Shown: piece by piece, positions 15,571 through 63,599 of the stretch | How the letters are laid out: each line of letters opens with the position of its first letter | Position numbering within the stretch: the first letter of the stretch is position 1 | From: Podarcis pityusensis | Lineage: Eukaryota | Assembly: GCA_964106645.2 (NCBI GenBank) | Contig: OZ067047.1 | Strand: one strand, 5' to 3' | Length of the DNA stretch: 64,000 nt | Notes under the pieces: model-generated | Told to the model about the DNA's origin: nothing | Database searches by the model: none | What the model saw: only the letters and a program-made list of their open reading frames with translations | Program-made: the position numbers and the translations under genes

Positions 15571-15681
15571 TTGCAGACTCGGCTTGGCTTTGGCGGGGCA
15601 GCTCCTGAAGAAGGAGGTGCGGGCGGTGAAGAAGAACTCCTCCGACTCGGACTCTTCCCAGCTGCTGTAGCCGCTGCTCAT
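15571..15681 (-). CDS. RASSF3: RASSF3 canonical first coding exon
   Basis: MSSGYSSWEESESEEFFFTARTSFFRSCPAKAKPSLQ matches the RASSF3 N-terminus (SSGYSS / FFTARTSFFR); 111 bp, phase-0 gtaagc donor; lies downstream of TBK1 on the same strand. I did not find exon 2 in the window. Confidence 0.95.
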
Positions 15682-15685
15682 GCTG

Positions 15686-17088: not shown

Positions 17089-18384
17089 TATAAGTACCCA
17101 TATCCTAATGTAAAAGGCACTATAGTCAACAGAACTAAACAGTGGGGCAGAACAGGTTCAGTCTATGGTATGTGTGTGTGTGTGTGTGCGCGCAAGCAGT
17201 TTTTAAAACCAGGTTATCCCACAAAACGGACAGTTAGTAAAGTTGTGGACATGGGAGTGCCTTATGGGATGGCGGGAAGCAAATTTCTCTTCAGATAAAA
17301 GACAATACTTCTGTAGCTATTTGTTGCCAAGTGGCAGAATCATAATACTCTGATCGTAAGCATGGTTATGCTGAAGTGAATCTGACTCTTTATTGGGTCT
17401 TTTAGTCTAGGTTTCCTGCAGATGAGGAGTTTGCCACCTGTACATTCCCTGGCACATTTTGAACATGGTTAAAAACACAATGCTGAAATAATACAGCAAA
17501 GTAATATAATCTGAGTCTTAAAAAAAAAGACAGCACAAACATGGTAGGCATTTTAAAAATGTTCAGTTATTAATTCCACAAAACCAAAGCAAGTATAAAT
17601 ATGTTCTAAAGTTGAGTTGCAAATAAAGTTCCATAGTCAGTGTTTCCATAACTCTGAATATCTAATTGCATGTTGTCGGGATGAAAAGGAAGGAGAAAGA
17701 ACAAAAACAGTTGTTACATGAACACTGTACTGTCTGGTTTGTAACAACTAATACCATGCTAAGATGCCTGAAGTTATATTGATTTAGTGTCTGTATTTGC
17801 ATTTTTTTAAAGCTACTGGCAAAACACTTAACTGCATCAACAAAGGAATGAGCATATACGAATCAATGCTTTGTGTTAGCTTTCTGCCAAATTTCACAGT
17901 AAAGCAGAGAATATCATCCTCTGTGTCCTCCTAGTACAAGTTATGCATAAGTACTTTTCAGGTGGACAGCATAGCACTTTTTTCTATTCACCACTGAGTT
18001 CCAAAGCATGCTCTTTATAAATTATGAGCCAGGCATGCAAATGAAGGTTGGCCTGCTGGCTGTAAAATTTTAATTGGACTTTGAATTATAGTGTGTGAGA
18101 CAGACAATATGCTTCACAGGGGCCTTATGCTTTGCTTATGGACAACAACCAGAATTGCTACTTGTTATTCCTTGAGCCTCTTGCTCTATAAGACAATGGC
18201 AAAATCACATTACAAAAGAAGAAAAGTAGCTTTCTTACACCCAAAACTGATGGGTCCTTTAGTAAAGTATCAGGAATGTAAATAGCCGTTCATTTGTGCT
18301 ATGAATTCCTTTTGTGAGGATAGGCTCCTTTTTGTAAGGAGGTTTTTAGGAAATGCAAGTCATTTTATTTCAGACCTAGGTTAA

Positions 18385-19159
18385 CTACACAACCTTGATG
18401 GCAGAAAGTGAGGAGGAATTAAAGAACCTTTTATTGAGGGTGAAAGAGGAGAGCGCAAAATATGGTCTGAAGCTCAACATCAAAAAAACGAAGATCATGG
18501 CCACTGGTCCCAGCACCTCCTGGCAAATAGAAGGGGAAGAAATGGAGGCAGTGAGAGATTTTACTTTCTTGGGCTCCATGATCACTGCAGATTGTGACAG
18601 CAGCCAAATTAAGAGACGCCTGCTTCTTGGGAGGAAAGCAATGACCAACCTCGACAGCATCTTAAAAAGTAGAGACATCACCTTGCCAACAAAGGTCCGT
18701 ATAGTAAAAGCTATGGTTTTCCCAGTAGTGATGTATGGAAGTGAGAGCTGGACCATAAAGAAGGCTGATTGCCGAAGAATTGATGCTTTTGAATTATGGT
18801 GCTGGAGGAGACTCTTGAGAGTCCCATGGACTGCAAGAAGATCAAACCTATCCATTCTTAAGGAAACCAGCCCTGAGTGCTCACTGGAAGGACAGATCCT
18901 GAAGCTGAGGCTCCAATACTTTGGCCACCTCATGAGAAGAGAAGACTCCCTGGAAAAGACCCTGATGTTGGGAAAGATGGAGGGCACAAGGAGAAGGGGA
19001 CGACAGAGGACGAGATGGTTGGATAGTGTCTTCGAAGCTACAAACATGAGTCTGACCAAACTGCGGGAGGCAGTGGAAGATAGAAATGCCTGGTGTGCTC
19101 TGGTCCATGGGGTCACGAAGAGTCGGACACGACTAAACGACTAAACAACAACAACAACA
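18385..19159 (+). mobile_element. BovB (RTE clade) LINE, 5'-truncated
   Basis: Open 249-aa frame MAESEEELKNLL...RRIDAFELWCWRRLLRVPWTARRSN...GVTKSRTRLND typical of BovB; (CAA)n tail; TSD AGGTTAA. Confidence 0.95.
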
Positions 19160-35853: not shown

Positions 35854-35963
35854 CTGCCCATCATCAGTGTCATATACGGAGCCGCATTCCATCAGTTTTC
35901 CATTCTGCGTATAGTCCAGATGTACCAAGTCTTGACAGTGAGAACGGCATGTGTATTTGCAAT
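35854..35963 (-). CDS. RASSF3: Putative upstream RASSF3 exon encoding the degenerate second half of a C1 domain
   Basis: tttcag|AT TGC AAA TAC ACA TGC CGT ... GGG CAG|gtaatg; (D)CKYTCRSHCQDLVHLDYTQNGKLMECGSVYDTDDGQ resembles RASSF1A CKFTCHYRCRALVCLDC and RASSF5 CKFTCHPECRSLIQLDC; phase 1->0, as in those paralogous exons. Confidence 0.8.
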
Positions 35964-36765: not shown

Positions 36766-38996
36766 AAGTCCAGTCCTAGACTGTGTGGGAGCACTTAGCT
36801 CACTTCGAGCTTTCTATGGTGCTGAAAGGACCAGTCTACCTTACGCCCCATGGTCCTCTTGTTAAGGTCAGGATAGGACAATAATGCAACCTTATGATTA
36901 CAGTTACTGTAGTTTGACAAAAAATTGGGGTCTTTCCAGAGGCTTGTGCCTGTAAATAAATTGTTGTGGTGGACCCAGACGCCATTCTTGCAGGCAATGT
37001 GTCAGTTACCAATATAAGTTTTCTTGTGATCTGAAGTTGCTGGGAGGGAATAGGAACAATAAAGGTAAGCTAGAGGCAGCCTTGAAAGTTTCAAGGCATT
37101 TTATAAGGAAAATACCAAGAGGTTTGAGGCATGGACATTTGGCTCAACGGAAGTGGGCTGTTTTAAATATTATGGCAAGAAGGATATAGACTAGGCCACA
37201 ACCAAATTGAAACTCCCAGTCATGTGGAAACTGAAAATCATGCTGAGGCTGCCCAACCTGAGGAAAAGAAAAGCCCTTTAGGACAGTGACTTTTTGAAGC
37301 AGTAGAAATACACCAGCCTATATGTGTGGCCTTCATTGTTGCCTGGGGCAGAGCAAGATCACAAACACTGTAATGATAGCTGGAGATTGTGAATAACCAT
37401 TGTAAGGCATCCCATTTATTTTGTATTCATTTATTTTTATCATTTGAGCTGACATGTTTTGGGAAGTCAAATTAGAAAGCTGTGATTTGGTTAAACAATA
37501 TGCAAAGACAGGGTGGCTAATCACGTTAGGAAACTAGTGTTGCTATGGCTGTTTTTATTCTCACCATCAATCTCAATCTGAGTATCTTTGAAGTTGTTCA
37601 CATAAGAGGCTAATAATTTCTTCCTTTTAAAGAGCACTGTGCCTTTTGGGGGGGGGGGAATGAGGGGCTGATAATCATATATTGATAAAAGGTCTGTGGG
37701 TGCCAGTACAAAATGGCTGCCATGGGCGGCAAAAATAGCAAAGCCAGTACTCCATATGACTGCTGTCATAAAAAACACCCTAGAAACACAACTTAAAAAA
37801 ACAAAAACCCAACTTGTATAAGTCCAATTTATGCTTTGTGTTTAAAGTTTCAGTAGTTGTCTTCCACTGTGTTTACTGGCAAATTTTCTCTGTCAAATAA
37901 ATTCACACCAGTGATGGAAATCTTAGATACAGGTGGGCTACAAAAATGGCTACGACAGACTGGAAAAGTTCTACCATATGCCTCTGAATCAAATAAGGGC
38001 CAAACCACATGTTACATTAAATTCATTGTGTGGTATTGTTTGCTACTATTTATTTCCATTTTAAATAGCAAGTGGGGAGCAATCAGGGTTGAACTGGGAG
38101 CTACATTAAGAGTCTTTGCAGTCCCAATAACCCCCACCCCACCCTCCGCTGCTGCTTGTCTTGGCAATTGCAGCTGGGCCCTGAGAGTGGGAACAATGCA
38201 CAGTTAGTGATGCAGGTATTCTTCTATCCCCATTCCCATTTGTTAGGAGCTTGAGCAAGTCTACAGTGTTTTTGCCAGGATGAGGAAAGGCAGCAAAGTG
38301 TATTTGATGAAGCTATAAGAAGGCAGAGAGTGAACAAAGTACACATTGCAGGACCTACATTGTATAGGCCTGTACTAGAACCACAGAGACCATAAAGCTG
38401 AGAAAAAGATAGCTGTGTGTGAAAGCCTTTAAAGAATTATTCTTCCCACTCCTAGAGTACTTATCAATCTAATACAAAAATTATTTGCTTCTGAAATCAA
38501 GCTTTGTCCAGTCTTAATTTCTCATTCTTCTTTTCCTGATAACATCTGAAAGATGCTGATCTGGAGAATAGCACTGGCTCATGATGGTGCCACTAAAAAT
38601 TTACCAAATATTTATAAAGGCATTCTGATCAGATTGAAGTCTTCCCTCAGCAATTCAGCTGGCGCTGCACATAACAAATCAGTTCGCTATTTATTTACAG
38701 TATTGGTTTGTTTCTAAAAACACATCTGAAAAATACATGAGAAATAGATACAAAACAATATTTTAAGCTTTCCATTTTCAAACGATGAAGGGCTGCATGA
38801 TAAAACATTACTTTCGATTCTGCCCTAGGGCAAATTAAATTTGTCTTATTTATATATATAAAAAATTAGAATCCAAGGAGAACTAGCATAACGCTTGCAG
38901 CTGAAAAACATACAAATTACTTGCGGTCATGGTAGTTCCTTATATTCTGCCTGCAGCAACAGTGTGATCCTTTCACGGTGTTAAGTTGCCACCTAC

Positions 38997-39063
38997 CTGC
39001 TCTCTGCTTTTTCTTCACCTCAAGCTTGATTTTGCTGGATAGTTTGTATATGGCTGTTCCCAT
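38997..39063 (-). CDS. RASSF3: Candidate alternative first coding exon of a long RASSF3 isoform
   Basis: GTG ATG G Kozak context; MGTAIYKLSSKIKLEVKKKQRA plus 1 nt; CAG|gtaggt donor; phase 1 fits the 35963 exon. Confidence 0.6.
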
Positions 39064-40264
39064 CACAGAGCATCTACAAGGCTGCGTAGGCAAGCAGATT
39101 AACAGATGCTCTACAAGCAGACGCAGATAATTGAGCTGTGCTGGATCTCATAAAACAACCAGGCTGCTGCTGCTCAAGAGAAGTTTCCATATTCTGCCAG
39201 ACTTATTTTTCAGCCTTTGTAGCCCTACACGCTGAAACCTTGATTTGAATTAGCTGATTTGACTTCCAAATAAACATTTGTAAATGGAGGCTAAAGTCTG
39301 CACAGAACCAAAACAGGGATAAGCACGTCGGATTTGGTATGGGCAGTGCCCCTTTCTTATATCTCTCTTGAATAAATTTTCATTTGAAGCCATGTTATAT
39401 CTGCCGCTCAGCTAGACAACTCTGTGCCCCAACAATCATGAAGTGCGGATGGAAGGCTTTGCCGCCTTCACAAAACATGTGACTGGTGCTGTAATTTCTG
39501 GCTAGGCTTGTCAATGGTTGGAGCAGACAAAAGGGGTGCCTAGATTCAGTCACATATTTCACAATCAATCATATTCGGCAATGCAGGCAGTTTGGTAGTG
39601 TGAGTATGGTGCCAATGACCCACACACACTGACCCTTTGTGAGTGACCCTCAAACCATCATCTTGCATGCCCAGGATCCAATCTAGAAGGATGATCAACG
39701 CACCTGTATTTGAAATGTGCAGTCTGAACTTCTGCACATTTACTCAGAAGCAATTCACACTGATGTCAGTAAGATTTACTTACACACACATACACACATA
39801 TGCATGCATTGGTTGCAGCCTTACAATGCAACCCTATACATGCTTAATCAGAAGTAAGGCCCACTGTTTCAATGGGGCAAATTTTTAGGCAAGTGAAGAT
39901 AGCACTGCAGCCTTGAATGGGATTTGTCTCTCAAGAAAACTCAGAGATGACGAAATTGAGAATCGCAAAAGAATCTATTATGCCAGCTTTCAGTTTCTAC
40001 AGTATAGGAATGCCTTCAGATTCAGATGCGAACATTTTTTTCTGGTTAGAAAAAGTAAAGTGAGATTATAATATTCCATTGGGAAAAATGTATTTGCATA
40101 TGAATGTATACAGTTTTGTATTTGGGGGGGATTTTAAAATATCTATTTAGAATACAGAATGTCTCTTTAGGATCTGGATTCTAGAATATCTCATCTTTTT
40201 AATGATTTGAAATTTACCTGTGATAAACTGGCAGGACAACGGGGAGGAGGAGGAAGAGTATCCC

Positions 40265-44302: not shown

Positions 44303-44960
44303 TGCCATATGAAGCTGAATGCTAGAGCAGATGGCCTTAATCCACCAAAGCAATATTTTAAGAATATATCTCAAAAGAATGCATATGATCAGAATTCAGA
44401 CAGGAGCACGATGGGCCCATGTACCCACTGCTGCTTGGCACAAGTGTTCCCTAAAGAACAGCTTTCAAGTCTTCATTCAAACTCAATGAGGAGCTCTTCT
44501 CTTTCTCTGTCTCTGCCATAAGTGAAGCAGCAGCTTCAGACATCTTGTAAATAGTATATCTTTTTGCCCAGGCTTTCCCTAATCCATAAGATCAGTCCAT
44601 TTTTCTCTGTATAAATTTGCTGAACCCGTTTTTTAAATATGCTTCCATACTTTACTGTTGTATTTTTGTTTTAATGAAATTGTTACGGTGTTCATGTAGT
44701 ACACTGCTTAGATTTTAAAAAAATATTAAGCTGTTTATTATCTATCTACCAATGGAGATGTGCTGGTTCGAAGAGAAGAGTAAAAATCTTAGTAGGCCTG
44801 CTCAGACCCTTAGATGTGCTTCAAGCAACTTGACACAGACTAATTTATTTCTGCTACAACACTCATCACAAAACTGCGGGAGAAAGGGTTTTAGTTTTGT
44901 TAAGAGAACATGACTTCTCAATTTAAGTTCATTGCAGAGAAGAGGAAAAGATAAACTTAC

Positions 44961-45081
44961 CAGAAGATGTGCAAAGAAGCTTGATTTTTCTCCTCCTTGG
45001 GCTACCCAGTGATTTGGGGAACCAATAAAAAAACTGTGCTATCCTTCTAATTGTTTTGTTGAAGTCGTTTCTTATTGCCAT
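44961..45081 (-). CDS. RASSF3: Candidate distal first coding exon of a long RASSF3 isoform
   Basis: GCT ATG G Kozak context; MAIRNDFNKTIRRIAQFFYWFPKSLGSPRRRKIKLLCTSS plus 1 nt; consensus G|gtaagt donor; phase 1; a further in-frame ATG at 45165. Confidence 0.55.
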
Positions 45082-47086
45082 AGCTAAAGTCAGCCGACTG
45101 CTCTTGAGGTAACTGCACAGAAGTGCAGGAAGGAAGGAAAAAGCCTCAAATACCCACAACCCCATAAGATCGCCGTGAATAGAACCTCAGCCAGCATGTC
45201 TCAAGGCCACCTGTTGGTCCTAAATCCTCTCATCTACATTTAGTAAACTAGAGATCTCTATCTTTATATTCAGTCACATTACTATAACCAAACTGTATGG
45301 TGGTACAGTGAGAGGAATTCATCAGTATCTTTACAAAAATGCTGTTTAAAAAACCATTTCCTGTAGTATTTTTCTCAGGTTATATATGATCCCAACATTA
45401 AACAGGTGTTTTCCTTACAGAAATCCGTTAATCAAATCAACAGAGCATTCTTCCCACAATCTTATGAAGTGGGTGATGAATTATAAAGATACCTTGATAT
45501 TGTTACTATTTAGAATGAGGTGCTCTGTTACTAACATGTTTATTTGAAAATAAATCCTTTTCTGATTCTAAACTGTACTGCCAGGATCTATGCTAAAGTT
45601 TCCAATATGCAGTCTTAGGCTCAGTCTCTAACAAATCACTTTTGCTGACACTGAAATCCAACAAATGAATAAAATATATACAGTAGTGGCTTACTTTTGG
45701 CACCTCAAAATGAAAGTCTATAAATAAATGACATGCTTTTATATATAGATAAGAATGATGAATCTGTGCAACCGTGATGCTTATATTTTCATTGTGCTTT
45801 TAGATAATTACACTATTCTCATTAAACAAAACAGTGTCCAATTGAAAAGGATGCCCATATTTTTTACATTTGCTGCTGTTTAGAGTTTATTGCCTCCAGC
45901 TATCTCGTTTAAGTTGACATTTTCTTGGCTAAATCCAGACACAACAGCACACAAAACGTTATAGGAACAAAGATGTTGCATCAAAATTGTAAAATGACTT
46001 AAAAGCATTTGTGTAACACAGTGCATAGTACTGATGTTTCAGGAGATATTTATGTTTCACTCCTCCATACTAAAACATGTAAGATATTTAGACCCCCACT
46101 TTCAGATATTTTTAACTTACTGCCTTTTTCCAGTCTGAATCTTGATAGATTGTATTTCCTGCGTCAATGTGTCCTAGAAGATAAAGCAAACATTTCCACA
46201 GATATTCTTTTGTCTGTGTCTGTTTGAATATAAGAGACAGATATCCAACAGAAAAACTGTTTCCTAGTTTTCACTATATTGCATGGAAGCCAGAAGGAAT
46301 GTCGGAGCAAAGTATTTTAATGCAACTGGGAAGCCAAGGACCACTGAAAACATAATAAAAGTTAGGGTGTTTTGTATCTCAACAGCTAGATTGTTTATTA
46401 AACTCATAAACTTCTTAGAATCCCATCATGATTTAAGATGCTGAGTATGTCCCATAATACCCTGAGTGATGTATCTTCATGTGTTGTTTATTCAATTAAG
46501 ATTTTAATTCTTGGCTAGATCCATACTCTACACACTGTGAAAGCAGGATAATAGACTTGATGGGTCTTTAGTCTTATCTAGAAAAGGTGTCTTCTTATAT
46601 TTTAAATTCATTATTTTAAATTAAAAATGAAATGTACACCTTTTTTAAAAATACTTTTTCAGTGATAACTTAAAACACTGGCTATCCCTTTGTTTCTTTG
46701 CAGAATATTGGAAACACAAAGGACTGGAATTTCTATGATGGAATTGGAGAGTTTAAAAATGTAGGATGTGGCAACGTTCAGGCGAACTTGTTCCCAAGAC
46801 TTGTTAGGGACAAACGCTAGTTTCAGTCATATTGTAGCTGCGAGACTAAGATAAAGAACAAGTATCAGAAAATGGAATGCAGTTTGGTTGTTTTATTTTC
46901 TAGGTCACTTCTGTGTTTTCTTCACTCCTCACTTTCCTCTGTGGCCCTCTAGTCTTGTGCCATGCTCCCCCCATTTAAGTGATTTTCACCTGTGGAATAT
47001 CCTGGGCCCCCCCAGGGAGCCACGTGGCCCTCAGTTGAGAAACGCTGCCCTACCAGATGCATGGTTTTATTATTTGTGGTGACCTA

Positions 47087-47429
47087 AGTGGGTGGCGCTG
47101 TGGGTTAAACCATAGAGCCTAGGGCTTGCTGATCAGAAGGTCGGCAGTTTGAATCCCTGTGACAGGGTGAGCTCCCGTTGCTCGGTCCCTGCTCCTGCCA
47201 ACCTAGCAGTTCGAAAGCACATCAAAGTGCAAGTAAATAGGTTACGCTCTGGCAGGAAGGTAAACGGCGTTTCCATGCGCTGCTTTGGTTCGCCAGAAGC
47301 GGCTTAGTCATGCTGGCCACATGACCCGGAAGCTGTACGCCAGCTCCCTCGGCCAATAAAGCGAGATGAGCGCTGCAACCCCAGTGTCGTCCGCGACTGG
47401 ACCTAACGGTCAGGGGTCCATTTACCTTT
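47087..47429 (+). mobile_element. Sauria SINE
   Basis: Similar to the other copies. Confidence 0.9.
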
Positions 47430-47959
47430 AAGCCATATTTTGGTGTGGGGCCCCGCTTACATTGAAATTTCCGCCTTCATATTTGACCATTGTTGGTAAG
47501 CACAGGAATGCCTGACTGGGCCTTGCACCCAAAGAAAGCCCTAGACTGTATGGGATCTCATGCAATCCTGTAGAGGACACTCTCCTGAACACGAGTGCAT
47601 GATATGTGGTGGTACAAAGCAATATTGGAGTGGGCAACCCCAGTTCCACCCACCCCCATATTTTGGCTATTGCTGATCTGCATAAATGTGTTTCATAGTG
47701 CCATGTGCCAGCTCTAGGCCAGGTGAGATTTCAATGGCATCTTGTAGAGGACATTTTCATGGTTGTATCGGTGTATGATTTGTGGTGGAAATAGCCATAT
47801 TTTGCAGTGGCCACCTTCAGTTACCTGTTTTTTTTAAAAAATGGTTGCATGATGTAATCACATATTTATGAGCATTTCACAAGCATGTTGTTGACTGAAG
47901 AAAATTACCGTTGGGCTCAAAGGAGTGTGTCCTCTGATCATGGAGATATATATCATGTA

Positions 47960-48315
47960 AAAGGTAAAGGTAAAGGGACTCCTGACCATTAGGTCCAGTC
48001 GCGGACGACTCTGGGGTTGCGGCGCTCATCTCGCTTTATTGGTCGAGGGAGCCGGCATACAGCTTCCAGGTCATGTGGCCAGCATGACTAAGCCGCTTCT
48101 GGCGAACCAGAGCAGCGCACGGAAACGTCGTTTACCTTCACGCCAGAGCGGTACCTATTTATCTACTTGCACTTTGACGTGCTTTCAAACTGCTAGGTGG
48201 GCAGGAGCAGGGACCGAGCAGCGGGAGCTCACGCGTCGCAGAAATTTGAACCGCTGACCTTCTGATCAGCAAGCCCCAGGCTCTGTGGTTTAGACCACAG
48301 GGCCACCTGCATCCC
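47960..48315 (-). mobile_element. Sauria SINE
   Basis: TSD TATATATCATGTA. Confidence 0.93.
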
Positions 48316-51032
48316 TATATATCATGTAGGGTATCCCAAATATTATTTTGCAATTCAGAGACATACTTTACTTCGGAGTTCAGAACATATTAACTTTTCT
48401 TCTTTTTTCAGTGTTTCAAACTTTCAACCAAATAAGGAACTGGGAACTAGCAACCAACTTCAGCGTCCTGCTCATACCTTGTTGTTTTTTTAATTATTTC
48501 TTTCAACCCATTATCTTTCACACACTCTTAACAATGTTCTATAACACTGTGAGTATCCAGTCTTGAAGTCCAATGATGTACATTGCTTACGTACCAAGAT
48601 CAGCAATTCCTCATATCAAGGACAATGAATTAGAAGTGTGAAAAGAGATTTATTTCTCATGCTGCTGCCTAACTTGTGGTACATTGATTTGAAGAGAATT
48701 TTCGCAAGACCCACAGCCGCTGCCGATAGAGTTACTATACAGACTAAGAATGGTAGAGTTCCCTCTACAAATTAATATGAAAGCACAATGCAAAATATTG
48801 AACACTACAAAAAAGCAAGCTGGTATATGTCATATTGTTTACAACTTATCTTAATAATTTACATGGAGGAAGGGGGAACAGGACCTTTTTTCTCTTGAGT
48901 GCTGCGTACCCTGTAATGTAATCTGTTGGGGGCTGTAAGCAGGGGCAGAGACAAAAGCAATGTAGATTAATCCAGAATAGACTGTACTGCTTCAATTTTC
49001 ACCATGGCTACCACGGATTAGAATTCTCAGTCCTATAAAGGTGTCCTCAGAAATAAGCCCCTCTGGGTTATTTGGGGTTATTTTTTATTTTAGTATAGGA
49101 GACTAATATAGGTAATTTGAAAAGCAAGTAAAAGTAATTCCTTTCTTATTTTAGTGTGCCATATGCACATAAACATATACGATAGAAAGCTATCAATTTG
49201 TTCTTGGGCAGCTGAGAGAACCCCCCCCCAAAAAAAAAGCCCAGAAGAAAAGCTTAAAAAAAGTATTTTAATCAAATAAAACACTGCCCCTCACCGTTAT
49301 TCTGAAACTTCATAGAAAGACAGCAAAATCCTTTAAAATAAAATAAAATGAAACTAATAGAAAGGAAGGAACTCTGAAGGGATGGGAGAATGTGGCAGAA
49401 GTGCCTTCAGCAACATAAAAGCTGTCATCCATGATTTACACTATTTGTTTAAAACTGGTTTCAGTATATGGAAGAAAAATCGACCCTTCTCCAATTCCTC
49501 CCTTCAAAAATTATGTTATAGAGTAAACAGGATTATGCAAAATGATGATTCTGTAAAACAGAAAACGATAGCATAAAGTAAACACGTTACAGAAATATAA
49601 TCTCAACATTTCAGAATAGACATTTACATACAATAAGGCAGCAAAGTTTCACATAGATTTACTACCTATGATTTCCGTAGTCCTTCCAACTAGGTTATTG
49701 GAAACTTGGTAATGAAAATAAGAGCTGCAACAGTGAAATAATATTTCTTTATCCATTTGAGACTATGTAGAGACGGGTGATTTTTATTTGTATTTTGGCA
49801 TGTCAGAATGGAGGAGACAGAAGGTAGAGTTGATTAGAAATTTGATTAAAAGAAACGAAGGCCTCAACCCACAGAAATCTAGAATAGTCTCAGATCAATT
49901 GGGTCTCTCCTAGAACTTATCCAGAATACTCTGGCTTAGAACAACAGCCTTACTTTCTAGACACGTTGGAAAATAAGTTCCACTAAAGTCAGTAAGACTG
50001 AATTAGACTGGTTTTGTATGTGTGCATGTCTGTTGAATTAAAAAAATTTAAAACACAGTGTAAGGAAGGTAGCAGAAGCTCACTTCTCTACTACCTCCTC
50101 CCCATGATAGCTTATCAAATGCTGAACTAAATTTTGGGCCTCTGTGCTGAATGAGGTTGATGAGCTGTAAGGAAGATTCCCCAAAACTGGGCCAAGGCAC
50201 TTTCAGTGAGTGAGGAAAGTGCCAACTCTTCAGGGATCCCCTTTTCCAAGGCAACTGCGTAAACACCTGTGCCAATGTTTTACCTCAGTGTCAAACGCTT
50301 CACAATAGCTTTAATAAAAAAAGGAAAGAATTCTCCTACTTTAGTAGAACTGACAAAGATTAGAAACCAGTATATGGGCCACACCAGGCTCAATGTTTAG
50401 CATGTAAGAAAGTAAATGCTACTTTTGAAATTGTATGGTGTTTGGTTTTTTTTTTAAATGCCAGTAAGAATTAATAACAAGGTTCACTGATTTTGAGACA
50501 CACTCTATGCTAGCGAACATGTTACAGCTTTTCCGTCACCTGTTGATTTAGCAAATAGAAGATTCAATTTGTATGTGCTTTTAAATCCCAAACTGGCAGA
50601 TTATACATACTCAAACTGAACATGATTACAAACTCAAAAATATTTCCTTCACCATTAGTTAAGAGAGATACTTTTTCAAGAGGTAATCATACTTTTCCCT
50701 GTCTCTTTTTTTGTACTTTGTAAGAGACATCTGCTCACAATGAAAGACAGCAGGAAACAATTTCAGAGGATCATAAATGAGGTACTGTGCATTCAGGTGA
50801 CTTAAGGGGAAGCCCAATTTCCTTGACAAAAATGAAGTAGGGTTTTTCCAAGACCAGTTTCTCTAGCAACATTCACAAGTAAACAGGCAAGGACAGCATT
50901 TGAAGCAATTGCATTGTGTCGATGTGCTCATCACAATATGCAGCCGTCATTATTTCACACGGAGGAAAGTTCTGATGTTACTCCAAATGTTAAGACCACT
51001 TGTAACGTTACCAAAAGAAATATACTTTCTAT

Positions 51033-51057
51033 TATATACATTATGTACATATTTACA
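51033..51057 (-). promoter_or_regulatory. Three tandem Pumilio response elements in the TBK1 3'UTR
   Basis: Minus strand reads TGTAAATA TGTACATA A TGTATATA; each matches UGUANAUA. Confidence 0.6.
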
Positions 51058-51061
51058 TGCT

Positions 51062-51067
51062 TTTATT
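51062..51067 (-). terminator. Candidate proximal poly(A) signal of TBK1 (AATAAA)
   Basis: AATAAA on the minus strand about 95 nt after the stop codon; usage unknown. Confidence 0.4.
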
Positions 51068-51162
51068 AAATACTGAGGGGGAATGCCAAGTTCAGAAAAC
51101 TCTTTCAATGGATATACGCTCTTTCTGTGCAAATTCAGATTGTGTTGTGGTAAATTGTCCAG

Positions 51163-51214
51163 CTAAATACAATCCACATTCCTTGGGCCACCATCCATCG
51201 TCAAAGCACCAAAC
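51163..51214 (-). CDS. TBK1: TBK1 last coding exon with stop codon
   Basis: FGALTMDGGPRNVDCI-TAG; tttag acceptor; 52 coding bp. Confidence 0.96.
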
Positions 51215-51432
51215 CTAAACAAAAAAACACAATCATAGCATTTAATGCTGTCTCTGGTACACAGTATTGAGTGATTGTGCTGCAGTGCAGTGGAATGAAC
51301 TCATTCTGTTGATTTCTATGGGATCAGAGTTCAACTGACTTAGCTGGATCAAGCCCACTGGCTTGAATCGAACAAGTCTTTAAGACGCACCACAAGGAGT
51401 GCACCTGGAAGTACAAAATGAGTTTTTTTTTT

Positions 51433-51813
51433 AAAAAAAGGTAAAGGACCCCTGGATGGTTAAGTCCAGTCAAAGGCGACTATGGGGTTGTGGCGCTCAT
51501 CTTGCTTTCAGGCCGAGGGAGCCAATGTTTGTCCACAGACAGCTTTCCAGGTCATGTGGCCAGCATGACTAAACAGCTTCTGGTGCAATGGAACACTGTG
51601 ACGGAAACCAGAGTGCACAGAAACGCCGTTTACCTTCCTGCCACAGAAGTACCTATTTATCTACTTGCGCTGGTGTGCTTTCGAACTGCTAGGTTGGCAG
51701 GAGCTGGGACCAAGCAACAGGAGCTCACCCTGTTGTGGGGATTCGAACTGCCGACTTTCCGATTGGCAAGCCCAAGAGGCTCAGTGGTTTAGACCACAGC
51801 ACCACCCACGTTG
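51433..51813 (-). mobile_element. Sauria SINE (longer subfamily) in the last TBK1 intron
   Basis: Family body; 16-bp direct repeat CACCACAAGGAGTGCA at 51388-51403 and 51819-51834. Confidence 0.9.
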
Positions 51814-52161
51814 CCTTTCACCACAAGGAGTGCATTTGTGTGAGTACAGTGGAAGGGTCCACTGTGTCGGTCATTCCTAACTCTCCTTCCTGGTGGGATG
51901 CCAATTACATGGGAAACACTCAAGCGACCAGCGTCTCTGCACAGAATTCACACGTGCGCCTCTGCAGGGTGGGAAAGCACCATGCAGAAGTGGCTCCTTT
52001 GCTTCTGGTTGCACACAAGACGCCACTTCAAAGCATGGATCTTCTGCAAGCCGTGGGCCAACCCTCTTCAGGTGCACAAGAAATTCTCAAAAGAGATGCA
52101 CAGCTACGTGTTCACCGTATATGCTTGCTGCCAAACTAAGTTCCTTAAAACCCCCACTTAC

Positions 52162-52233
52162 CTTTCCAAAAGGTGATTATTCTCGGCTAATTCTTTAACG
52201 ACACCTTCCATTTCTTCTTTCAGTTTCTTCATG
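52162..52233 (-). CDS. TBK1: TBK1 coding exon (exon 20 equivalent, adaptor-binding coiled coil)
   Basis: [24 protein letters not shown]; cag / gtaagt; 72 bp. Confidence 0.97.
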
Positions 52234-52480
52234 CTGAAAGTTTAAAAGAAAGAAAGAAAAGAAATGCACAGTGCTTAATTCTCAGTTAAAAATCTTTCTA
52301 AAACTACTGGCTATTTCTTTAATGTAAGGAAACTGGAAGTGAAACAGATTTTTCAAAAAGACACCCAAACTGTGTATAATGACTATTTAAAGAGGACGAC
52401 TATTTAAAGAGGAACTTTCAGCTCGGCTCACTGACTACTAGGCTCTTCCAGGGTTCTAAATCACATGAGGAGCCTACATG

Positions 52481-53045
52481 CAGGGAGGATAAAAATCAAT
52501 GATTTTTAAAGTGGTTTTTAAAAAAATAAATCAATTTTTTAAAATGTAAATTGGATTTTTAAAATAAAATACTTTTGGAGGGAAAATCTTTGTAAAGATA
52601 GTTTTCTATTTAAGTTACATTATAGTCCAAAGGCTATTCATCAGGAAATAAGGATTTCTTTTAAGTTTTTAATGTGTGCTAAAACTCAGTCTAAGTTTTT
52701 TTTTTTAATTGTTTAACCACATCAGTTAACAAACATAGATATATATGCTATAATGTTATTGTTATTAAGGAAATGATTATTTTCCTCCTTCCAATAAAGT
52801 ACAGCAGAAAAGTTGTCCAAATATAAACAGTTAACTTATTAAACCTCACAATATTTCCATAATTATCTGTCTATATGTATTTCTAATTGTATAACCAAAT
52901 CAGTAATTTTTGATATAACTGAAAAAACTACTCTGGAAATTTATTATTACAAAAATAAAACCTTCATCTGGTTGTAAATATTAATATAATACCAGCAAGA
53001 ATGGGTCTTTCTGTTAAAAAAATGATTTAAATCAAATCCACCCTG
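52481..53045. mobile_element. AT-rich hAT non-autonomous element
   Basis: TIR CAGGGAGGAT / ATCCACCCTG with subterminal AAATCAA / TGATTT repeats. Confidence 0.75.
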
Positions 53046-53050
53046 CCAAC

Positions 53051-53444
53051 TGTTAGTATTTCATGCAGTCGATGCTGCAGATGTAACTGGTGTGAATAAC
53101 ACGCCTGTCTGAGAAGACTGTGGGAACGGAAGACAGCCTTATCTCTCTTCCTCTGTATGTACTTTGTAATGTACTTTCATTTTTGTCGTTCTCTCGGAAC
53201 TGGAGAGAACAGATACCATTATGCTGTAGTCAGTATATAGCATGTAAATAAGTCGTAGATTAGATCTACGATGTCTCACTCTTCTTACTGTGTTATGCCA
53301 GAAGATTAGTGTGCATATATCAAGCTGATATATGTTGCTGGAGCGCCCTGGAGAAGGAGGGAGATGTCTTTTCCAGTGCTGGACACATCAGAGGACGCTT
53401 GGAATTCCATGGGCTTGCAGGCGGCCCCGGGGTGTTTTCCAACA
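53051..53444 (+). mobile_element. Probable solo LTR
   Basis: TGTT...AACA termini and LTR-like composition; TSD not cleanly resolved. Confidence 0.5.
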
Positions 53445-53729
53445 CTGCTTACAGGAGTAGGAAAGGCTCCCCATGGCAGATGTTTGGAGAAGAGGGAGAG
53501 GAAGGAAACAACTGCCCTTGTCCCTACTCTACTTTATGCGATTCTTACTCCATGAAGGATTTTAAAAAACACACCAAATAGGGCTAGTGATGGCAGCACC
53601 ATAAGAACAGCTGACACAAGAATAAGAAACACAAATGTTGCATGGCAATACTGTTTCTAGAACTATGCCATCTTGGTCCTCCAGATGTTGCTTGACCACT
53701 AGTACCTTCAGCCTCAGCCAGCATGTGCA

Positions 53730-54066
53730 TGTTGAATGGTCTCTTTAAATGTGAAGGTTCATTATTGTGTATGTCTTTAAGGGCCAGAGCAAATAACGAG
53801 ACCCAGTTTTACAGCTGTGAAACAGTATAGCAGGTGCTGCTAAGTTGTGTTAATTAAGCTGTGTCAGCAATTGGGTATAGTATATAAAGAGCAGCACCTA
53901 ACTCTCTCAGTACCCCGGGGGATGGGTGGGTCATGCTTGTTGATATATTTAATGTAAAAGGAGTTTTTGTTATTAAAACCTTGTTAAAGTTATTTTTGAG
54001 TTCCTTGTAATGCGTGGTCTCCCCAGCAAGCTTTCTGCAGCACAACTAAACTGCAAATAGCCAACA
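53730..54066 (+). mobile_element. Solo LTR inserted in a hAT MITE
   Basis: TGTTG...CAACA termini; perfect 5-bp TSD GTGCA; TATATAAA and ATTAAA signals; MITE halves at about 53660-53724 and 54072-54133. Confidence 0.85.
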
Positions 54067-54331
54067 GTGCAATGGTCAGGGATGATGGGAGTTGGACTAC
54101 AACATCTGGAAGGGCACAGATTAGCCACCCCTGGGTTAAAAAAACAACTAATAAAGCTTGGTGTCAACATTCAAATGTGACTATGCCCAGAGTGGCTGGG
54201 GCAATCCAATCATATGGGTGGGGTTCAAATAATAAAAAAATAACAATCTTAACAAAAGCTTGGCATTTTTAAGTAGTTCTGTGAAAAGCAGGTTAAAAAG
54301 CATTGCATTCATCCAGGTGAGAAATTCTTAC

Positions 54332-54438
54332 CCAAGAGTCATTTCTACCAAAGTGTTTGAACTTGGATAAACTGGGTTAATTGTATGTTTGATCCCACCG
54401 GAAGCCGCAAACATCTTATGGGGTAAATTTTCTTGTAA
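54332..54438 (-). CDS. TBK1: TBK1 coding exon (exon 19 equivalent)
   Basis: [36 protein letters not shown]; cag / gtaaga; 107 bp. Confidence 0.96.
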
Positions 54439-55078
54439 CTGTAATAAAATACACAAAGCCCATCTTAATAAGAAAAAAACAGGAGACATATTTCTAATAA
54501 ATACTCACTGGATTCAAGGGATGACATTTGGTACCCAAGAGTTGAAAAGAGCATGAGCTCTTGCTCCCAAGAGACTTAAGAAGACCAACTGCGCCTCCCC
54601 CTTCACCCCACCTTGACTAACAGTGCTACCCTGACAGCACCGCGGGACCCTCATTAGTCAGTTCCTGAAGTCTGTAGTTGCATAACTCTATTTAGTAAGT
54701 TTTCCAGATGTATAGTAAGTCTAATGTTAACAAAACAGAATTTATGGAACTGTGAAGATTGCACTAAAAAGGAGTTCTATTAGCTGGCTATCTAAACTGG
54801 GAAGGTATTTAGGCACAAAAATAACATATCATAAGGATTACCTATACAATGTTAATTTTCCTCTTGTTCTCGAAGCTTTTTTTAAAGATCTAAAGAATTG
54901 GGAAGTTTTGGGCATTCTGGTTATCAAAGAGAGTGAATTGTTCTGGACTCTGTGGCAAATAAATCCTCTCTAGCTTTTCAATGCTCCACTGGTGGACTTA
55001 ATAAAAAGGGGGGGAGGGACAATGTTTTTTTGGAAAGAGATCTTATATGTTAGGGATGGGAGGCCTGTGGCCCTAGAG

Positions 55079-55216
55079 CAGCCTTTCTCAACCTGTGGGT
55101 CCCCACATGTTGTTGAATTACAACTCCCATCACCCCTAGCTAGCAAGGCCAGAGCTCAGGGATGATGGGAGTTGTAGTCCAACAACATCTGGGGACCCAC
55201 AGGTTGAGAACCACTG
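55079..55216. mobile_element. Palindromic hAT MITE
   Basis: Perfect 8-bp TSD CCCTAGAG. Confidence 0.9.
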
Positions 55217-55623
55217 CCCTAGAGCCTAATTTCAATGAACTCCAAGCAATCTTCCCCCTGTCCACAGATGATCAAAGCTGGCAGCAGAAATTGCTTGGTA
55301 CATCTGGAATGGAGTCAATCTTTTCTAAATTGAAATGTTTATGATAACTGTTCTCTTCCTTAATACATTTCTCACAGTAAGACAACCACTGAGCTCTAGT
55401 AATTTTATATTGCAATCCTATGCACACTTACCCGGGAGCAAGCTCCACTGTACTCCATAGGGCTAATTCTGAATAAGCATGCATAGGATTACAGTGTTAA
55501 TGGAGCAATGTTGGGAGACCTTGTGTATGCAATAAAATTTAAGGGGAAAATCTGTGCAGGTTATTACGAATTTCTGCAAAGCACTTATTCCTCTTTTGAC
55601 TATCCCTCTTTAAAATACTGATA

Positions 55624-55872
55624 CAGTCTTATCTTGGAAGTCAAACGGAATCCATTCCGGAAGTCCATTCAACTTTCATAATGTTTGGAAACCAAAGTGC
55701 GGCTTCTGATTGGCTGCAGGAAGCTCCTGCAGCCAATCGGAAGCCATGGAAGCCACGTCGGACATTTGGCTTCCAAAAATAGTTTGCAAACAGGAAGTCA
55801 CTTCTGGGTTTGCGGCATTCGGGAGCCAAAACGTTAAGAGAACTAAACTGTTTGAAAACCAAGGTATGACTG
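55624..55872. mobile_element. Tc1/mariner-type MITE (second family), 20 nt from a TBK1 exon end
   Basis: Degenerate TIRs, TA TSD. Confidence 0.85.
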
Positions 55873-55892
55873 TAATTAAGGAGAACACTTAC

Positions 55893-55989
55893 ATCATTTA
55901 CATAGTCCTGATATTTCGACACCTCTTCCTCAATATCGAAGCAGAGTTTTCTGAGATTCATTAGCTGTTTTCTTAAAAGAAGCATCTTC
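55893..55989 (-). CDS. TBK1: TBK1 coding exon (exon 18 equivalent)
   Basis: [32 protein letters not shown]; cag / gtaagt; 97 bp. Confidence 0.95.
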
Positions 55990-56085
55990 CTGAAAAGGAA
56001 AACCAGTTTTAAAATCATGTTTTTGTGTCACTATGACTTGCTCTTGTAGAGAGAGTCCAATGATACACAAAACAAAAAATCTTGC

Positions 56086-56187
56086 CTCATCCAGTCCTCT
56101 GCCTTGTCAAAGAAAACTTCGTACTTGGTGACGCATTCTTCCTTGAACAAGGTCATGGCTTTTGTAGCATGTAGAAAAAGCTTCTGC
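56086..56187 (-). CDS. TBK1: TBK1 coding exon (exon 17 equivalent), ends at a GC donor
   Basis: [34 protein letters not shown]; cag acceptor; the in-frame join to the next exon uses AG|gcaaga; 102 bp. Confidence 0.92.
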
Positions 56188-56321
56188 CTGCAGCACAGAA
56201 ATAAGAACCATACTGTCATATTGCTCCCAAATATTCCATTCCTCACAATCCTGGACCTTAAAAACAGTATCTCTGCACTCCAAAGAGGGAGAACGTTGTA
56301 GAAAGAGTACACAGTAAAGCA

Positions 56322-56735
56322 CACAATTCAAAATGTTGGTGCTGACCTTTAAAGCCCTAAATGGCCTTGGTCCAGTGTACCTGAAGGAGTGTCTCCACCC
56401 CATTGTTTTGCCCAGACACTGAGGTCCAGCGCCAAGGGCCTTCTGGCGGTTCCCTCACTGCGAGAAGTGAGGTTACAGGGAACCAGGCAGAGGGCCTTCT
56501 CGGTAGTGGCACCCGTCCTGTGGAACGCCCTCCCATCAGATGTCAAGGAAATAAACAACTATCTGACTTTTAGAAGACATTTGAAGGCAGCCCTATTTAG
56601 GGAAATTTTCAATGTTTGATGTTTTATCGTGTTTTTAATATTCTGTTGGGAGCCACCCAGAGTAGCTGAGGAAACCCAGCCAGATAGGCGGAGTATAAAT
56701 AAATAAATAATAATAATTATTATTATTATTATTAT
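56322..56735 (+). mobile_element. L2 LINE 3' end
   Basis: [36 protein letters not shown]; (TAA)n tail. Confidence 0.88.
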
Positions 56736-56856
56736 AGTAGAGGAATCCCACATATAGAAAATCACACATTGTTTTTTTTATTTTGTCATTTTGTGTCCAC
56801 TGGTGGGATGCTGGACCTCACCCAAAATATTTATAGAATTTTAAAAAGAGACTTAC

Positions 56857-56896
56857 TTGTCGAATTTGTGGATTTGTTCCTCGTTATATGGAAGTC
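56857..56896 (-). CDS. TBK1: TBK1 coding exon (exon 16 equivalent)
   Basis: LPYNEEQIHKFD; tag / gtaagt; 40 bp. Confidence 0.95.
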
Positions 56897-57234
56897 CTAA
56901 AGAAAATAAATGAATAAAATGAAATCGGATAGCAAAAGTAATGCTCAGGGGGTTGTGAAGCTTTTTGGGTTCTAGGGCACACGGGCAAATTGGAGAAGCT
57001 GTCTGTGTGTGGACACAAGGACCCCAATGAGTCCTACTGCCTACAGAAGAATGATTATTTCAAGCCAAACGTCAGTGGGGGGGAGGGAAGGAGACCCAGT
57101 GAGAAACAGGGAGGACCTGCATGGGAACAAATGAGCCTCTGGGCAGCACAGTGGCAGATCAGAATTGCTTTCTCTACTCACCGTTTGAAACACAAATTGA
57201 TTTTATAATCGATGACCCCCCATCAAGTCAAATA

Positions 57235-57443
57235 CAGTCGTACCTTGGATCCCAAATGCCACAAACCCAGAAGTGAGTGTTCCGGTTTGCGAACATTCTT
57301 TGGAACCCAAATGTCTGACGGGGCTTCCGATTGGATGCAGGAGCTTCCTGCAGCCAATGAGAAGCAGCGCTTTTGTTCCTGAACATTTTGGAAGTCAAAG
57401 AGACTTCCGGGACAAATTCTGTTCAACTTCCAAGGTACGACTG
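57235..57443. mobile_element. Tc1/mariner-type MITE (second family)
   Basis: TIR CAGTCGTACCTTGGA, TA TSD. Confidence 0.87.
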
Positions 57444-57492
57444 TACACATATACTTAGCCATGATCATTTTAACTTTGAACATTATTATTAC

Positions 57493-57645
57493 CAGGGCTT
57501 TTTTCTAAAAAAAAAAAAAAATGTTTAAGGGTACTCTCATTTTCCTACTCATATTGAAATACTGCCCTTCAATGAGGCCAAACTTAGATTCACGAAATGT
57601 TTAGGGGTATGTGTACCCATGTGGCCCTCCAGGAAAAAAGCACTG
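57493..57645. mobile_element. hAT MITE
   Basis: TIR CAG(G/T)GCTTTTTTC; 8-bp TSD (A/G)TTATTAC. Confidence 0.8.
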
Positions 57646-57877
57646 GTTATTACTATTACTTATTATTACTATTATTTTAATTTATTACCCACCCTTCACC
57701 CTAAGCCTAAAGTATGACAATTTAAAATAAACGCAACATTAAAAACAGTTTACAATCACAACTTACAGTCACAAAAAATAGGATGGGTCTTAAAAAATAT
57801 ACACCTCAGGTGGTAAAGAGGCAAATCTGCAGTACCTCATAATTTAACTCAGCTAAATATAAACTAAAATTACTTAC

Positions 57878-57954
57878 GGCGTTCTGCTTTGTCTTTTTTG
57901 AACTGATAATAAATTTCTGTAATGGAACTCAGTAGGACTTGCAACCTTTCTGGG
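57878..57954 (-). CDS. TBK1: TBK1 coding exon (exon 15 equivalent)
   Basis: PERLQVLLSSITEIYYQFKKDKAER; tag / gtaagt; 77 bp. Confidence 0.96.
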
Positions 57955-58056
57955 CTAGGAGAGAAAAAGTAAAGATATAAATCATTTAACACATGCCAGT
58001 ATGCATGAACTTGAAAACGAAGCACAGTAAGAACTTTACGTGGAAATGCCACTCAC

Positions 58057-58178
58057 TTTCTGTCTTTCGGGTGCGTGCCTTCCTGGTTGGTCCAGCCATC
58101 AGACAGCAGGCCATTCGGACAGAGTTTGCTTTTGATATCCTGAAGACTGCTCTCTATTGTTCCCCGCGAACTTGAAAG
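58057..58178 (-). CDS. TBK1: TBK1 coding exon (exon 14 equivalent)
   Basis: [40 protein letters not shown]; cag / gtgagt; 122 bp. Confidence 0.96.
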
Positions 58179-58244
58179 CTGAACGAATGCAAGAAATTCA
58201 GCTTTACCCAGCAAAAATTTGCTGAAAGCTGAGTTTTGGAACAT

Positions 58245-58753
58245 ATATAGAAAGAAACCTTTTTATCTTTTATAAATATAAGATAAAAGATTGTTTATGT
58301 ATGCAACAACTGTGGCAAGAATTCTTTTAGCCCCAAAATGGAAACAACAAGAAGTACCAATGAAATAAGAGTGGCAGATGAAGATGATGGACTTTGCAGA
58401 ACTGGCAAAGCTGACAGGAAAAATCCGAAACCAGCATGATCAAATATTCCAAAAGGACTGGAGTAAATTTAGACAATATTTGAAAGATTATTGCAAGCAA
58501 TTAACATCACTAGCAGGGTTGTCTGAAGACTTGTAATGAGAAATTTTCTACCTTTATTTATTTAAATTTTGAGTCATTTTGTAATGAGTGCAATTAGAAT
58601 TGGAAAACGTACAAAATGCAATGATATAAAGGTTAATTTTGAAAGCCATGAGGCAGGAGGGAAGGAAGTCAATAGGCTCTAAAGAGCCAGGGCAGTAAAG
58701 TGGATAATGATGATGTGAATGTATATAATTAAATGGAAAATAAATAATAAAAA
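58245..58753 (+). mobile_element. L1/Tx1-clade LINE 3' end
   Basis: Reads LFMYATTVARILLAPKWKQQEVP; A-rich tail; related to the 8245 element. Confidence 0.75.
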
Positions 58754-58990
58754 AGTGGAACCTTGGGTTGCGAACGTGATCCATGCGGGAGGCACGTTCA
58801 CAACCCGCAGCGCCGCGTCTGCACAAGTGCATGATGCGATTTGGCGCTTCTGCGCATGCGCAAAGAACGATTTGGCGCTTCTGCACATGCACCGAAACCC
58901 AGAAGTAACCCGTTCCGGAACTTCTGGGTTCGGTGCGTCCGTAACCCAAAAACGCGCAACCCACAGCGATCGCAACCTGAGGTATGACTG
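58754..58990. mobile_element. Tc1/mariner-type MITE
   Basis: Degenerate TIRs; related to the 5324 element. Confidence 0.75.
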
Positions 58991-59771
58991 TATATATAGA
59001 AAGAAAGAAACCCTGGTTACTTTAGAATAGCTGAAAATGTCTCAATGACAGAAAATTGGCCAGAAACCTGCAACACCTCATAATAGCAGCAAGCCAAGCC
59101 ACATTTCCTAGAATTTACAGACGTCCACCTTAACATACTTTAAGCATCCTTGCATTGGAGGAAAGAGAGACTTTCTACTGGCTGCCAAGAATCTGTGCTT
59201 ACAGGCAACATCCCTACATTGCTGTCACTGTAAATATACACAAAACACCACTGACACAAAAATAGAAAGTCAACTACATTGAAAGAGATCTTTTTATTTT
59301 TGCTTTTAGGGTGTGCAATAAACTTTACTGGAATATTTCACTAGCACATTAATGCTCAACACCTGTATTAGTTTGATTTCCCTGCAGTGCTGTTGTGCAA
59401 CTGGTTCAGCATCACATTTGGGGGACGTGTTTCTTCATGCGAACACCCATGCATGTGAACAAAGCATGGCTCGCTATTCTCCCCACAAGAATTCTGCCGT
59501 ATGCCACTTCTACACACACACACAAATATCAAGCCAGAAATTTGAGCGATTTCCCCACGACTGTTCACATCTCTCCACATCCAAATTGGAAAGAAATAAC
59601 ACATACACTAAATAGATTCATATGAAGAAAATACCATCAGCTAATGAACATGCTCAACAAACATGCTAAAAAAAAAGTGGTTTTCCTTTACAGGAAAACA
59701 CTAAACATACCAGGAATTTGCAGTACACCCTTATTTCAAGTACTGTAATGCTGCAATGTTAATATGCTTAC

Positions 59772-59850
59772 CCGTAACAGCTTGGAGTGTATGTCTGAAA
59801 TTTCATCCACTTCTGACGGTGCCAGGTTGTTTTGATACATATTTTGATAT
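59772..59850 (-). CDS. TBK1: TBK1 coding exon (exon 13 equivalent)
   Basis: YQNMYQNNLAPSEVDEISDIHSKLLR; cag / gtaagc; 79 bp. Confidence 0.93.
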
Positions 59851-60444
59851 CTGTTCGCCAGAAGACAAGACACACAAAGTCAACCTACGTACAACAGCCC
59901 ACAGATCTGTTTAGCATGATCAAATAATTGTTAACAATAAAAATAAAAAACCCTATTTGGTGATATGCCAAAATAAAATAAAAACAATTATTCTGGATCC
60001 AACAGAACAGTACATCCACAAACACCTGAAATAGGGAGACCTGGGTATACAATTGAGCACTAAATGTGCGTGGAGATATTTCTGTAGACCTTGAAAGCAG
60101 TTTTGCTGAAGGCTAGTTAAAAGTAGTTTATGTAGTTAACCTACATTTTAGGGTAACAAAAATTATTTTATTTATGTTTTATATTTATACCCCACCTTTC
60201 TTCCAAGGAGCTCAAGCTGCCATACATGCTTTGCCCACCCCCCCGTATCCCTACAACAACCTTGCGAGGTAGGTTAGATTAAGTGACTGTCCAAAATCAG
60301 CCAGTGAGCAGGGTGGAGGCATTCTGTAGCAAATGCCCATCATTGTTCAACAAGACTAAGACTGGATATTATCCAGTGACATGAGAAATGCAGACCTTCA
60401 CAGCATGCAGCATTCGTTCTAAAAAAGAGCATTTATATACTCAC

Positions 60445-60546
60445 ATTTCCCCAGCTTTTTCTATGTTTCTGTTGCAAAATTCCAGCTTGATAACCACCTC
60501 TGTCTTTTTGTGTAACGTTTCATTGTAATCCTCTTTGATTATTTCG
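60445..60546 (-). CDS. TBK1: TBK1 coding exon (exon 12 equivalent)
   Basis: [33 protein letters not shown]; tag / gtgagt; 102 bp. Confidence 0.95.

Positions 60547-63389: not shown

Positions 63390-63599
<210 letters not shown>

Follow-up and report, generated by a model that had tools for sequence, protein, structure and literature searches.

RASSF3 is an adaptor for growth-control kinases, and its relatives RASSF1 and RASSF5 use alternative starts. It is described as a protein of 238 residues that has no C1 zinc finger and is cytosolic unless MIRO recruits it. The accessible text of a 2007 review (PMC2586335) names only RASSF3A, 3B and 3C, and the accessible part of a 2020 preprint draws C1 solely in RASSF1 and RASSF5. 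In the accessible sections of PMC11316025, the interactors of RASSF3 include MST1/2, and human RASSF3, when tagged and on its own, stays in the cytosol until MIRO recruits and relocates it, so that a targeting leader built into the protein would change its place of action.

The window, meaning the whole stretch of 64,000 nucleotides of Podarcis pityusensis DNA analysed here (G000:C10:47616001-47680000), carries RASSF3 on its minus strand, with exons 92-100% identical to those of Podarcis muralis RASSF3. The four exons encoding the RA and SARAH domains are located just beyond the low end of the window (97-100% identity to P. muralis RASSF3). The upstream limit of the gene is its neighbour TBK1, which lies on the same strand with its stop at 51163 and PF18394 matches at G000:C10:47671893-47678675; the TBK1 3' exons (51163..56189, minus strand) belong to a gene that continues to higher coordinates, its 3' part spanning 51163-64000 (-), with a likely CpG-island promoter about 13 kb past the window end. 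The canonical short first exon, of RASSF3A type (15571..15681, minus strand), lies in a CpG island, has a phase-0 donor and is homologous to the RASSF1C/NORE1B start. A long GC-rich open frame (15493-16269, minus strand) lies upstream of this exon and in frame with it, and P. muralis models use the equivalent frame to give proteins of 428-434 residues, which is probably a CpG-island artefact. The Thr-Trp-Thr-Ser-Ser extension found there in other squamates is without a Met in this lizard. Between this exon and TBK1 lies a shared exon of 110 nt (35854..35963, minus strand), which encodes the second half of a C1 zinc finger with two of its four zinc ligands changed, and which ends in phase 0, as the canonical short first exon does. 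The window also contains a retrotransposon-like reading-frame fragment (18380-19144, plus strand) and many 300-nt short interspersed repeat copies (e.g. 47960-48320 and 51440-51800), which we take to be of the RTE-type and Sauria SINE families.

The coding part of an MG-type alternative first exon was located at 38997..39063 on the minus strand, on the basis of sequence and homology. This exon, MGTAIYKLSSKIKLEVKKKQRA (67 nt), holds 22 codons plus 1 nt and encodes a 22-residue leader of net charge +6. The preliminary description had claimed a 67-nt exon with an ATG in strong context and a frame-keeping splice to 35963, and each element was found: the ATG at 39063 is flanked by G at positions -3 and +4, a phase-1 donor (CAG/GTAGGT) follows 38997, and a TTTCAG acceptor precedes 35963, where the 110-nt exon is phase-1 compatible and open. 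Start codon, open frame and a donor in phase with the next exon are thus all present. When the 8,997-nt intron was crudely filtered for a Kozak ATG followed by an open frame and a phase-1 donor, two places were returned, the second of which contains an in-frame stop, leaving one valid place of the two. Use of the segment as an internal cassette exon was considered, with acceptors read by eye and phase 1 taken from the second alternative first exon described below; it was rejected because both nearby upstream AG acceptors lead to a stop within three codons.

All MG homologues are database gene models: Sceloporus and Pelodiscus were obtained from cluster look-ups, the chimaera, gar, teleosts, newt and frog from a profile search, and the orca from a further look-up. 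The leader was found in at least 13 other species (chimaera, gar, six teleosts, newt, frog, turtle, fence lizard and orca), and in 13 of 13 proteins of 13 species, among 410 collected proteins, it stands directly before the C1-half exon; 11 of the 13 models start at the leader Met and two (frog, eel) extend upstream in frame. The window leader is 82% identical to that of Sceloporus isoform X3 (XP_042324381.1, P0005), which starts MGMAIYKLSSKTKLGVKKKQIA, and 77% identical to that of Pelodiscus isoform X2 (XP_025044042.1, P0040), which starts MGIAIYKLSSKIKFQVKKTQTA; isoform X2 of Orcinus, the orca (XP_049549939.1, P0259), starts MGTAIYKLWGKVNFQVKKTHIP. A profile of the 13 leaders, built with the window left out, scored 39.5 bits at the MG exon and at most 6.0 bits elsewhere in 264 kb on both strands. 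Against the 410 collected proteins the same profile gave 13 matches at 38.8-51.8 bits, the next match scoring 4.1 bits, and no further member. Seven positions (M1, G2, K7, L8, K11, V16 and K17) are invariant in all 14 sequences including the window; M1, G2, K7 and L8 were part of the pattern used to select leaders, hence also the presence of Gly2 in 14/14, whereas K11, V16 and K17 were not. Net charge ranges from +4 to +6 in the 14 leaders, residue 18 is Lys or Arg in 13 of them, and Q15 is kept in 12.

The start codon, donor and phase, whose absence from other reptiles had been put forward as one ground for dismissing the exon, are conserved, and Met, Gly2, length and junction are kept far beyond reptiles, so that this half of the objection falls and the claim of an alternative first exon of RASSF3 holds. 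The chimaera and tetrapod lineages separated more than 400 million years ago. In gene models from across the jawed vertebrates, RASSF3 has an alternative first coding exon to which the 67-nt segment corresponds, and the segment is very likely a real RASSF3 exon. No MG model was seen in birds, crocodilians, marsupials or primates among the best 120 of 1025 matches (with up to 15 listed members per cluster), nor did the profile match any of 150 library representatives, many of them apparently non-vertebrate RASSF proteins. A ray model (Hemitrygon, P0137) has a five-residue start before the C1 half that resembles the tail of the MG leader, possibly because this exon has been modelled incompletely there. 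The MG leader, predicted by RefSeq in other species, is apparently an undescribed alternative N-terminus of RASSF3: no description of it, or of the MAIR isoform presented below, was found in a literature search whose coverage excluded most subscription papers, and the accessible text of PMC12858966, PMC12313994, PMC5370449 and PMC2940729 holds nothing on RASSF3 isoforms.

A second leader, which the preliminary description had missed, is encoded by a MAIR-type alternative first exon (44961..45081, minus strand; 40 codons plus 1 nt, net charge +9) that has a phase-1 donor and is spliced from 45081-44961 to 35963 in phase 1. It is 100% identical to the start of P. muralis isoform X2 (XP_028601627.2), and an in-frame ATG at 45165, upstream of the MAIR start, is used by a P. 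raffonei model. Homologues were found in a mormyrid fish, amphibians, turtles, birds and placental mammals, including human XP_047284667.1 (A0A1B0GUG6). Like the MG leader it is basic and amphipathic, and it forms a strongly amphipathic predicted helix (helical moment 0.88, a value not compared with shuffles). In mammals, MAIR may matter more than MG as a targeting leader. As judged from gene models, MG and MAIR are two ancient leaders within the intron dividing the C1 zinc finger into halves, and Sceloporus has all four isoforms (C1, MAIR, MG and short). In this genome, a MAIR-like exon also lies between the two C1 halves of RASSF5 (G000:C6:39636778, minus strand), with a score of 19 bits from a profile that included two RASSF5-like rows (P0278 and P0281), which suggests that the MAIR leader predates the RASSF3/RASSF5 duplication. 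In the cobra Naja naja, the models P0009 and P0014 fuse the shared exon to a retroviral Gag-like frame, likely through an intron insertion or mis-annotation.

Full-C1 isoforms of RASSF3 were found in sharks, ray-finned fish, frogs, turtles, birds, Sceloporus and the amphisbaenian Rhineura, with Pfam C1_1 above its cut-off in two of these proteins (P0007 and P0011). The MG and MAIR isoforms gave no Pfam C1_1 match; RA and SARAH were matched on the orthologous MG isoform. In the window, the expected place of the first-half exon of C1 is the stretch that separates the TBK1 stop from the MAIR exon (45166..51162, minus strand), a gap-free interval (0 N in 44303-56200) in which neither such an exon nor a CpG island was found. 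An orthologue profile of this exon reached at most 10 bits in 264 kb, versus 71 bits for the left-out Sceloporus sequence, and a broader profile reached 5.2 bits at RASSF3, versus 35.8 at RASSF5 and 38.6 at RASSF1 in the same genome. Genome-wide, two protein searches for it returned only paralogues and other C1-like matches, one motif search returned 0 matches, and another returned 14, all of at most 18 bits versus 71 for the left-out orthologue. A complete C1 of RASSF3 (both halves, eight zinc ligands) was accordingly not found in this genome.

The shared exon itself has lost two ligands, His being replaced by Arg (CGT) and the last Cys by Tyr (TAT). The His-to-Arg codon (35946-35944, minus strand) is absent from the P. 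muralis and P. raffonei proteins and may be a species difference, an allele or an error. Among 125 surveyed RASSF3 proteins containing the shared exon, all 40 with the first half of C1 keep the three surveyed ligand positions, and the last Cys is Tyr in three Podarcis and 27 placental entries, none of which has the first half. These entries should be read as two lineages and not as 30 events, and first-half absence in mammals was judged from protein models only. In placental mammals the first Cys encoded by the shared exon is changed as well. It is possible that the missing first-half exon reflects an assembly error, but the same Cys-to-Tyr change occurs in two other Podarcis species and no C1 isoform was found among the lacertid models examined; both observations agree with a true loss of the C1 option in this lizard.

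The preliminary description had suggested that the MG leader could replace C1 as membrane anchor. As worded this does not stand: in Sceloporus the MG leader coexists with a full-C1 isoform (P0005 versus P0007), so the leader did not evolve to replace C1. Comparison of gene models indicates an option that runs in parallel with C1 instead of standing in for it, although C1 is gone in this lizard.

The MG exon might be ancient but silent, or degenerating along with what is left of C1, in this lizard. This would fit a shared exon with two ligand changes (His to Arg being absent in the P. muralis and P. raffonei proteins), the absence of the MG type from all ten Podarcis, Lacerta and Zootoca models examined (0/10), and the RNA search: no contig with the 38997-35963 junction, and none over the shared exon, was found in four of twelve possibly-RNA runs, none of which is on record as RNA. 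Low-depth unspliced contigs cover 38949-39240, 39060-39308 and 39224-39617; as they may be DNA or pre-mRNA, they speak neither for nor against use of the exon. Decay is nevertheless improbable, since no damage is seen in the ATG context, the frame, the donor or any of the seven invariant residues, and the MAIR-type models of two Podarcis species still use the shared exon.

A TATA box follows the consensus TATAWAWR and stands about 30 nt before the start site. The claimed TATA element is indeed present as a word, TATAAGAAAG at 39361-39352 (39352..39361, minus strand), but it departs from the consensus by one mismatch (G at the sixth position) and its promoter role is unsupported, because a start 30 nt behind it would leave the transcript with four upstream ATGs, one of them overlapping the main start out of frame. 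The pattern TATA[AT][AG][AT][AG] has 45 matches on the minus strand of the window, which amounts to a chance of about 25% for any 400 nt; for the exact word TATAAGA, with five occurrences, the chance is about 3%. The last of the three unspliced contigs spans the TATA-like word. One could suppose that the MG exon serves merely as an extra promoter giving tissue or stage specificity, its peptide being a frame-keeping spacer; RASSF1 and RASSF5 do use alternative starts, according to the accessible text of PMC2586335, and the leader region is predicted to be disordered. We regard this as unlikely: between chimaera and orca, seven of the leader's first 18 residues never change and their spacing is fixed, whereas these proteins differ freely in the adjacent linker that follows the C1 half.

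The reading that we favour assigns a function to the peptide. An internal promoter would start the transcript at the MG exon, and splicing to 35963 and from there to the four exons of RA and SARAH would give a protein of about 272 residues; the gene would thus choose among four starts (C1, MAIR helix, MG leader and short), this lizard having no C1 option. As neither zinc site can be completed, the leader and the orphan C1 half are probably disordered. Lys7, Lys11, Lys17 and the basic residue 18, interleaved with hydrophobic residues 5, 6, 8, 12 and 16, would bind anionic lipids, and myristoylation of Gly2 would add a further anchor, the outcome being a pool of RASSF3 at the membrane that does not need a GTPase. 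From the conserved basic and hydrophobic residues it appears on balance probable that the MG leader gives RASSF3 a short basic N-terminus that targets it to acidic membranes.

Structure prediction gives no ordered leader. With an 84-row alignment, AlphaFold assigned pLDDT below 50 to residues 1-67, a region for which the leader had only 13 rows, and folded RA-SARAH with a mean of 74; with the 13-row alignment alone, pLDDT was 38 and the model was unusable. Proteins of the ARF/ARL type carry an N-terminal amphipathic helix. Such a helix was rejected for the MG leader, its helical moment (0.50) not exceeding that of shuffles (p 0.47; p <0.05 in 1/14 leaders). The idea of a nuclear localisation signal was set aside, the basic tail differing between species.

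The periodicity of the leader feeds another interpretation, in which it binds protein and not lipid: residues 11-17 would adopt a beta-strand, and this strand would either dock on another protein, such as one associated with microtubules or an organelle, or pair with the orphan, cysteine-rich half of C1. The beta-periodicity moment exceeds that of shuffles (p <0.05) in 7 of the 14 leaders, including the window (0.87, p 0.016), as against 1/14 for the helix moment, although these are related sequences and not independent. K11, V16 and K17 are invariant outside the selection pattern, Q15 in 12/14 is more specific than charge would need, and the accessible part of PMC11316025 gives MAP1B, MAP1S and VAPA/B as known RASSF3 partners. 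A strand, however, needs no invariant Gly right after the initiator; AlphaFold shows no ordered strand or hairpin at the leader (on a shallow alignment), and the partner is hypothetical. We hold protein binding to be a rather doubtful account, and retain membrane targeting as the working reading.

An anchor of Src type consists of a myristoyl group plus a polybasic cluster. Myristoylation of this type had been raised in the preliminary description, which called it uncertain in view of the Tyr at residue 6. Gly2, Lys7 (K7 in 14/14) and the downstream basic cluster are present, but residue 6 is unfavourable, which leaves myristoylation doubtful for the Tyr6 form: this residue is Tyr in the window and seven others, Phe in one, Cys in five teleosts and Ser or Thr in 0/14, so that the window leader has no small residue (Ser/Thr, also Ala/Gly/Cys/Asn) there. 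N-myristoyltransferases (NMTs) favour GXXXS(K/R) according to the accessible text of PMC8689648, and Lys7 forms a specific salt bridge to NMT1 Asp471 in that of PMC7048800. In a hand count of the HeLa myristoylation sites of PMC10696250 (supplement 2), none of 75 has an aromatic residue 6. Nineteen of the 75 lack Ser/Thr6; Lys or Arg is found at position 7 in 11 of these 19, versus 16 of the 56 with Ser/Thr6, and residue 3 of the 19 is Asn, Gln or Ala in 16 and Thr, Ile or Met in none. One HeLa site, P2RX5, is Cys6-Lys7, as in the five teleost leaders, and the mouse site Samm50 combines Thr3 with Ala6-Arg7, one Thr3 case in the mouse table. A PROSITE-type rule is passed by 5 of the 14 leaders, all teleost, and failed by the window. 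Gly2 is one of seven invariant positions, so that conservation does not single out lipidation. Judging from these residues, we would put Gly2 myristoylation of the Tyr6 form at somewhat less than an even prospect, and that of the teleost Cys6 forms higher. If the Tyr6 leader were myristoylated, the substrate rules of NMT would be widened.

RASSF3 has two conserved basic leaders, of which MAIR is annotated in human and MG was seen in species up to a whale; the place where the protein meets MST1/2 and MIRO may thus be set by uncharacterised isoforms, and an N-terminal tag would mask or block any RASSF3 leader. This lizard offers a natural C1 deletion that parallels the one in mammals, a parallel that would explain the C1-less look of human RASSF3. 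A broader and tentative scenario, which we think rather unlikely as a whole, would make RASSF3 ancestrally C1-bearing, like RASSF1A and NORE1A, with a switchable N-terminus (C1, amphipathic helix, MG leader or short); MG would be a myristoylated anchor with a non-canonical Tyr6-Lys7 signal, present since the first jawed vertebrates and probably overlooked in humans, placing a Hippo-kinase/MIRO adaptor on membranes without a GTPase, and C1 would have been lost twice (in placentals and in wall lizards), each loss being followed by the same Cys-to-Tyr change.

Compared with known systems, human RASSF3A (the 238-residue form of the 2007 review) is a product of the same gene, its short exon being located here at 15681-15571; it is drawn without C1, whereas non-mammalian RASSF3 has a full-C1 isoform. 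The RASSF3 isoforms predicted by RefSeq in Sceloporus, Pelodiscus and Orcinus share with the window the same leader (21-23 residues) and the same junction with the C1 half. They differ in being unnamed predictions, in that the lacertid models examined are without the leader, and in that Sceloporus keeps the C1 first-half exon, which this genome is without. The Src-type anchor, whose myristoyl plus polybasic principle is stated in the accessible text of PMC2940729, resembles the MG leader in Gly2, Lys7 and a basic cluster within 20 residues; it differs at residue 6, which is Tyr, Cys or Phe in all 14 leaders and never Ser or Thr, and in that lipidation of the MG leader is only proposed here. 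Among the paralogues of this genome, the stretches scanned for RASSF5 (120 kb) and RASSF1 (50 kb) yielded nothing like the MG exon, with best scores of 4.8 and 3.1 bits, and RASSF5 has the MAIR-like exon. RASSF1A/1C and the RASSF5 forms NORE1A/NORE1B are organised like RASSF3, with one RA-SARAH body, exchangeable N-termini and a C1 split by the same intron. Starts of the RASSF1C/NORE1B type, however, bypass the whole C1 region, whereas the MG and MAIR leaders of RASSF3 splice into the second half of C1.
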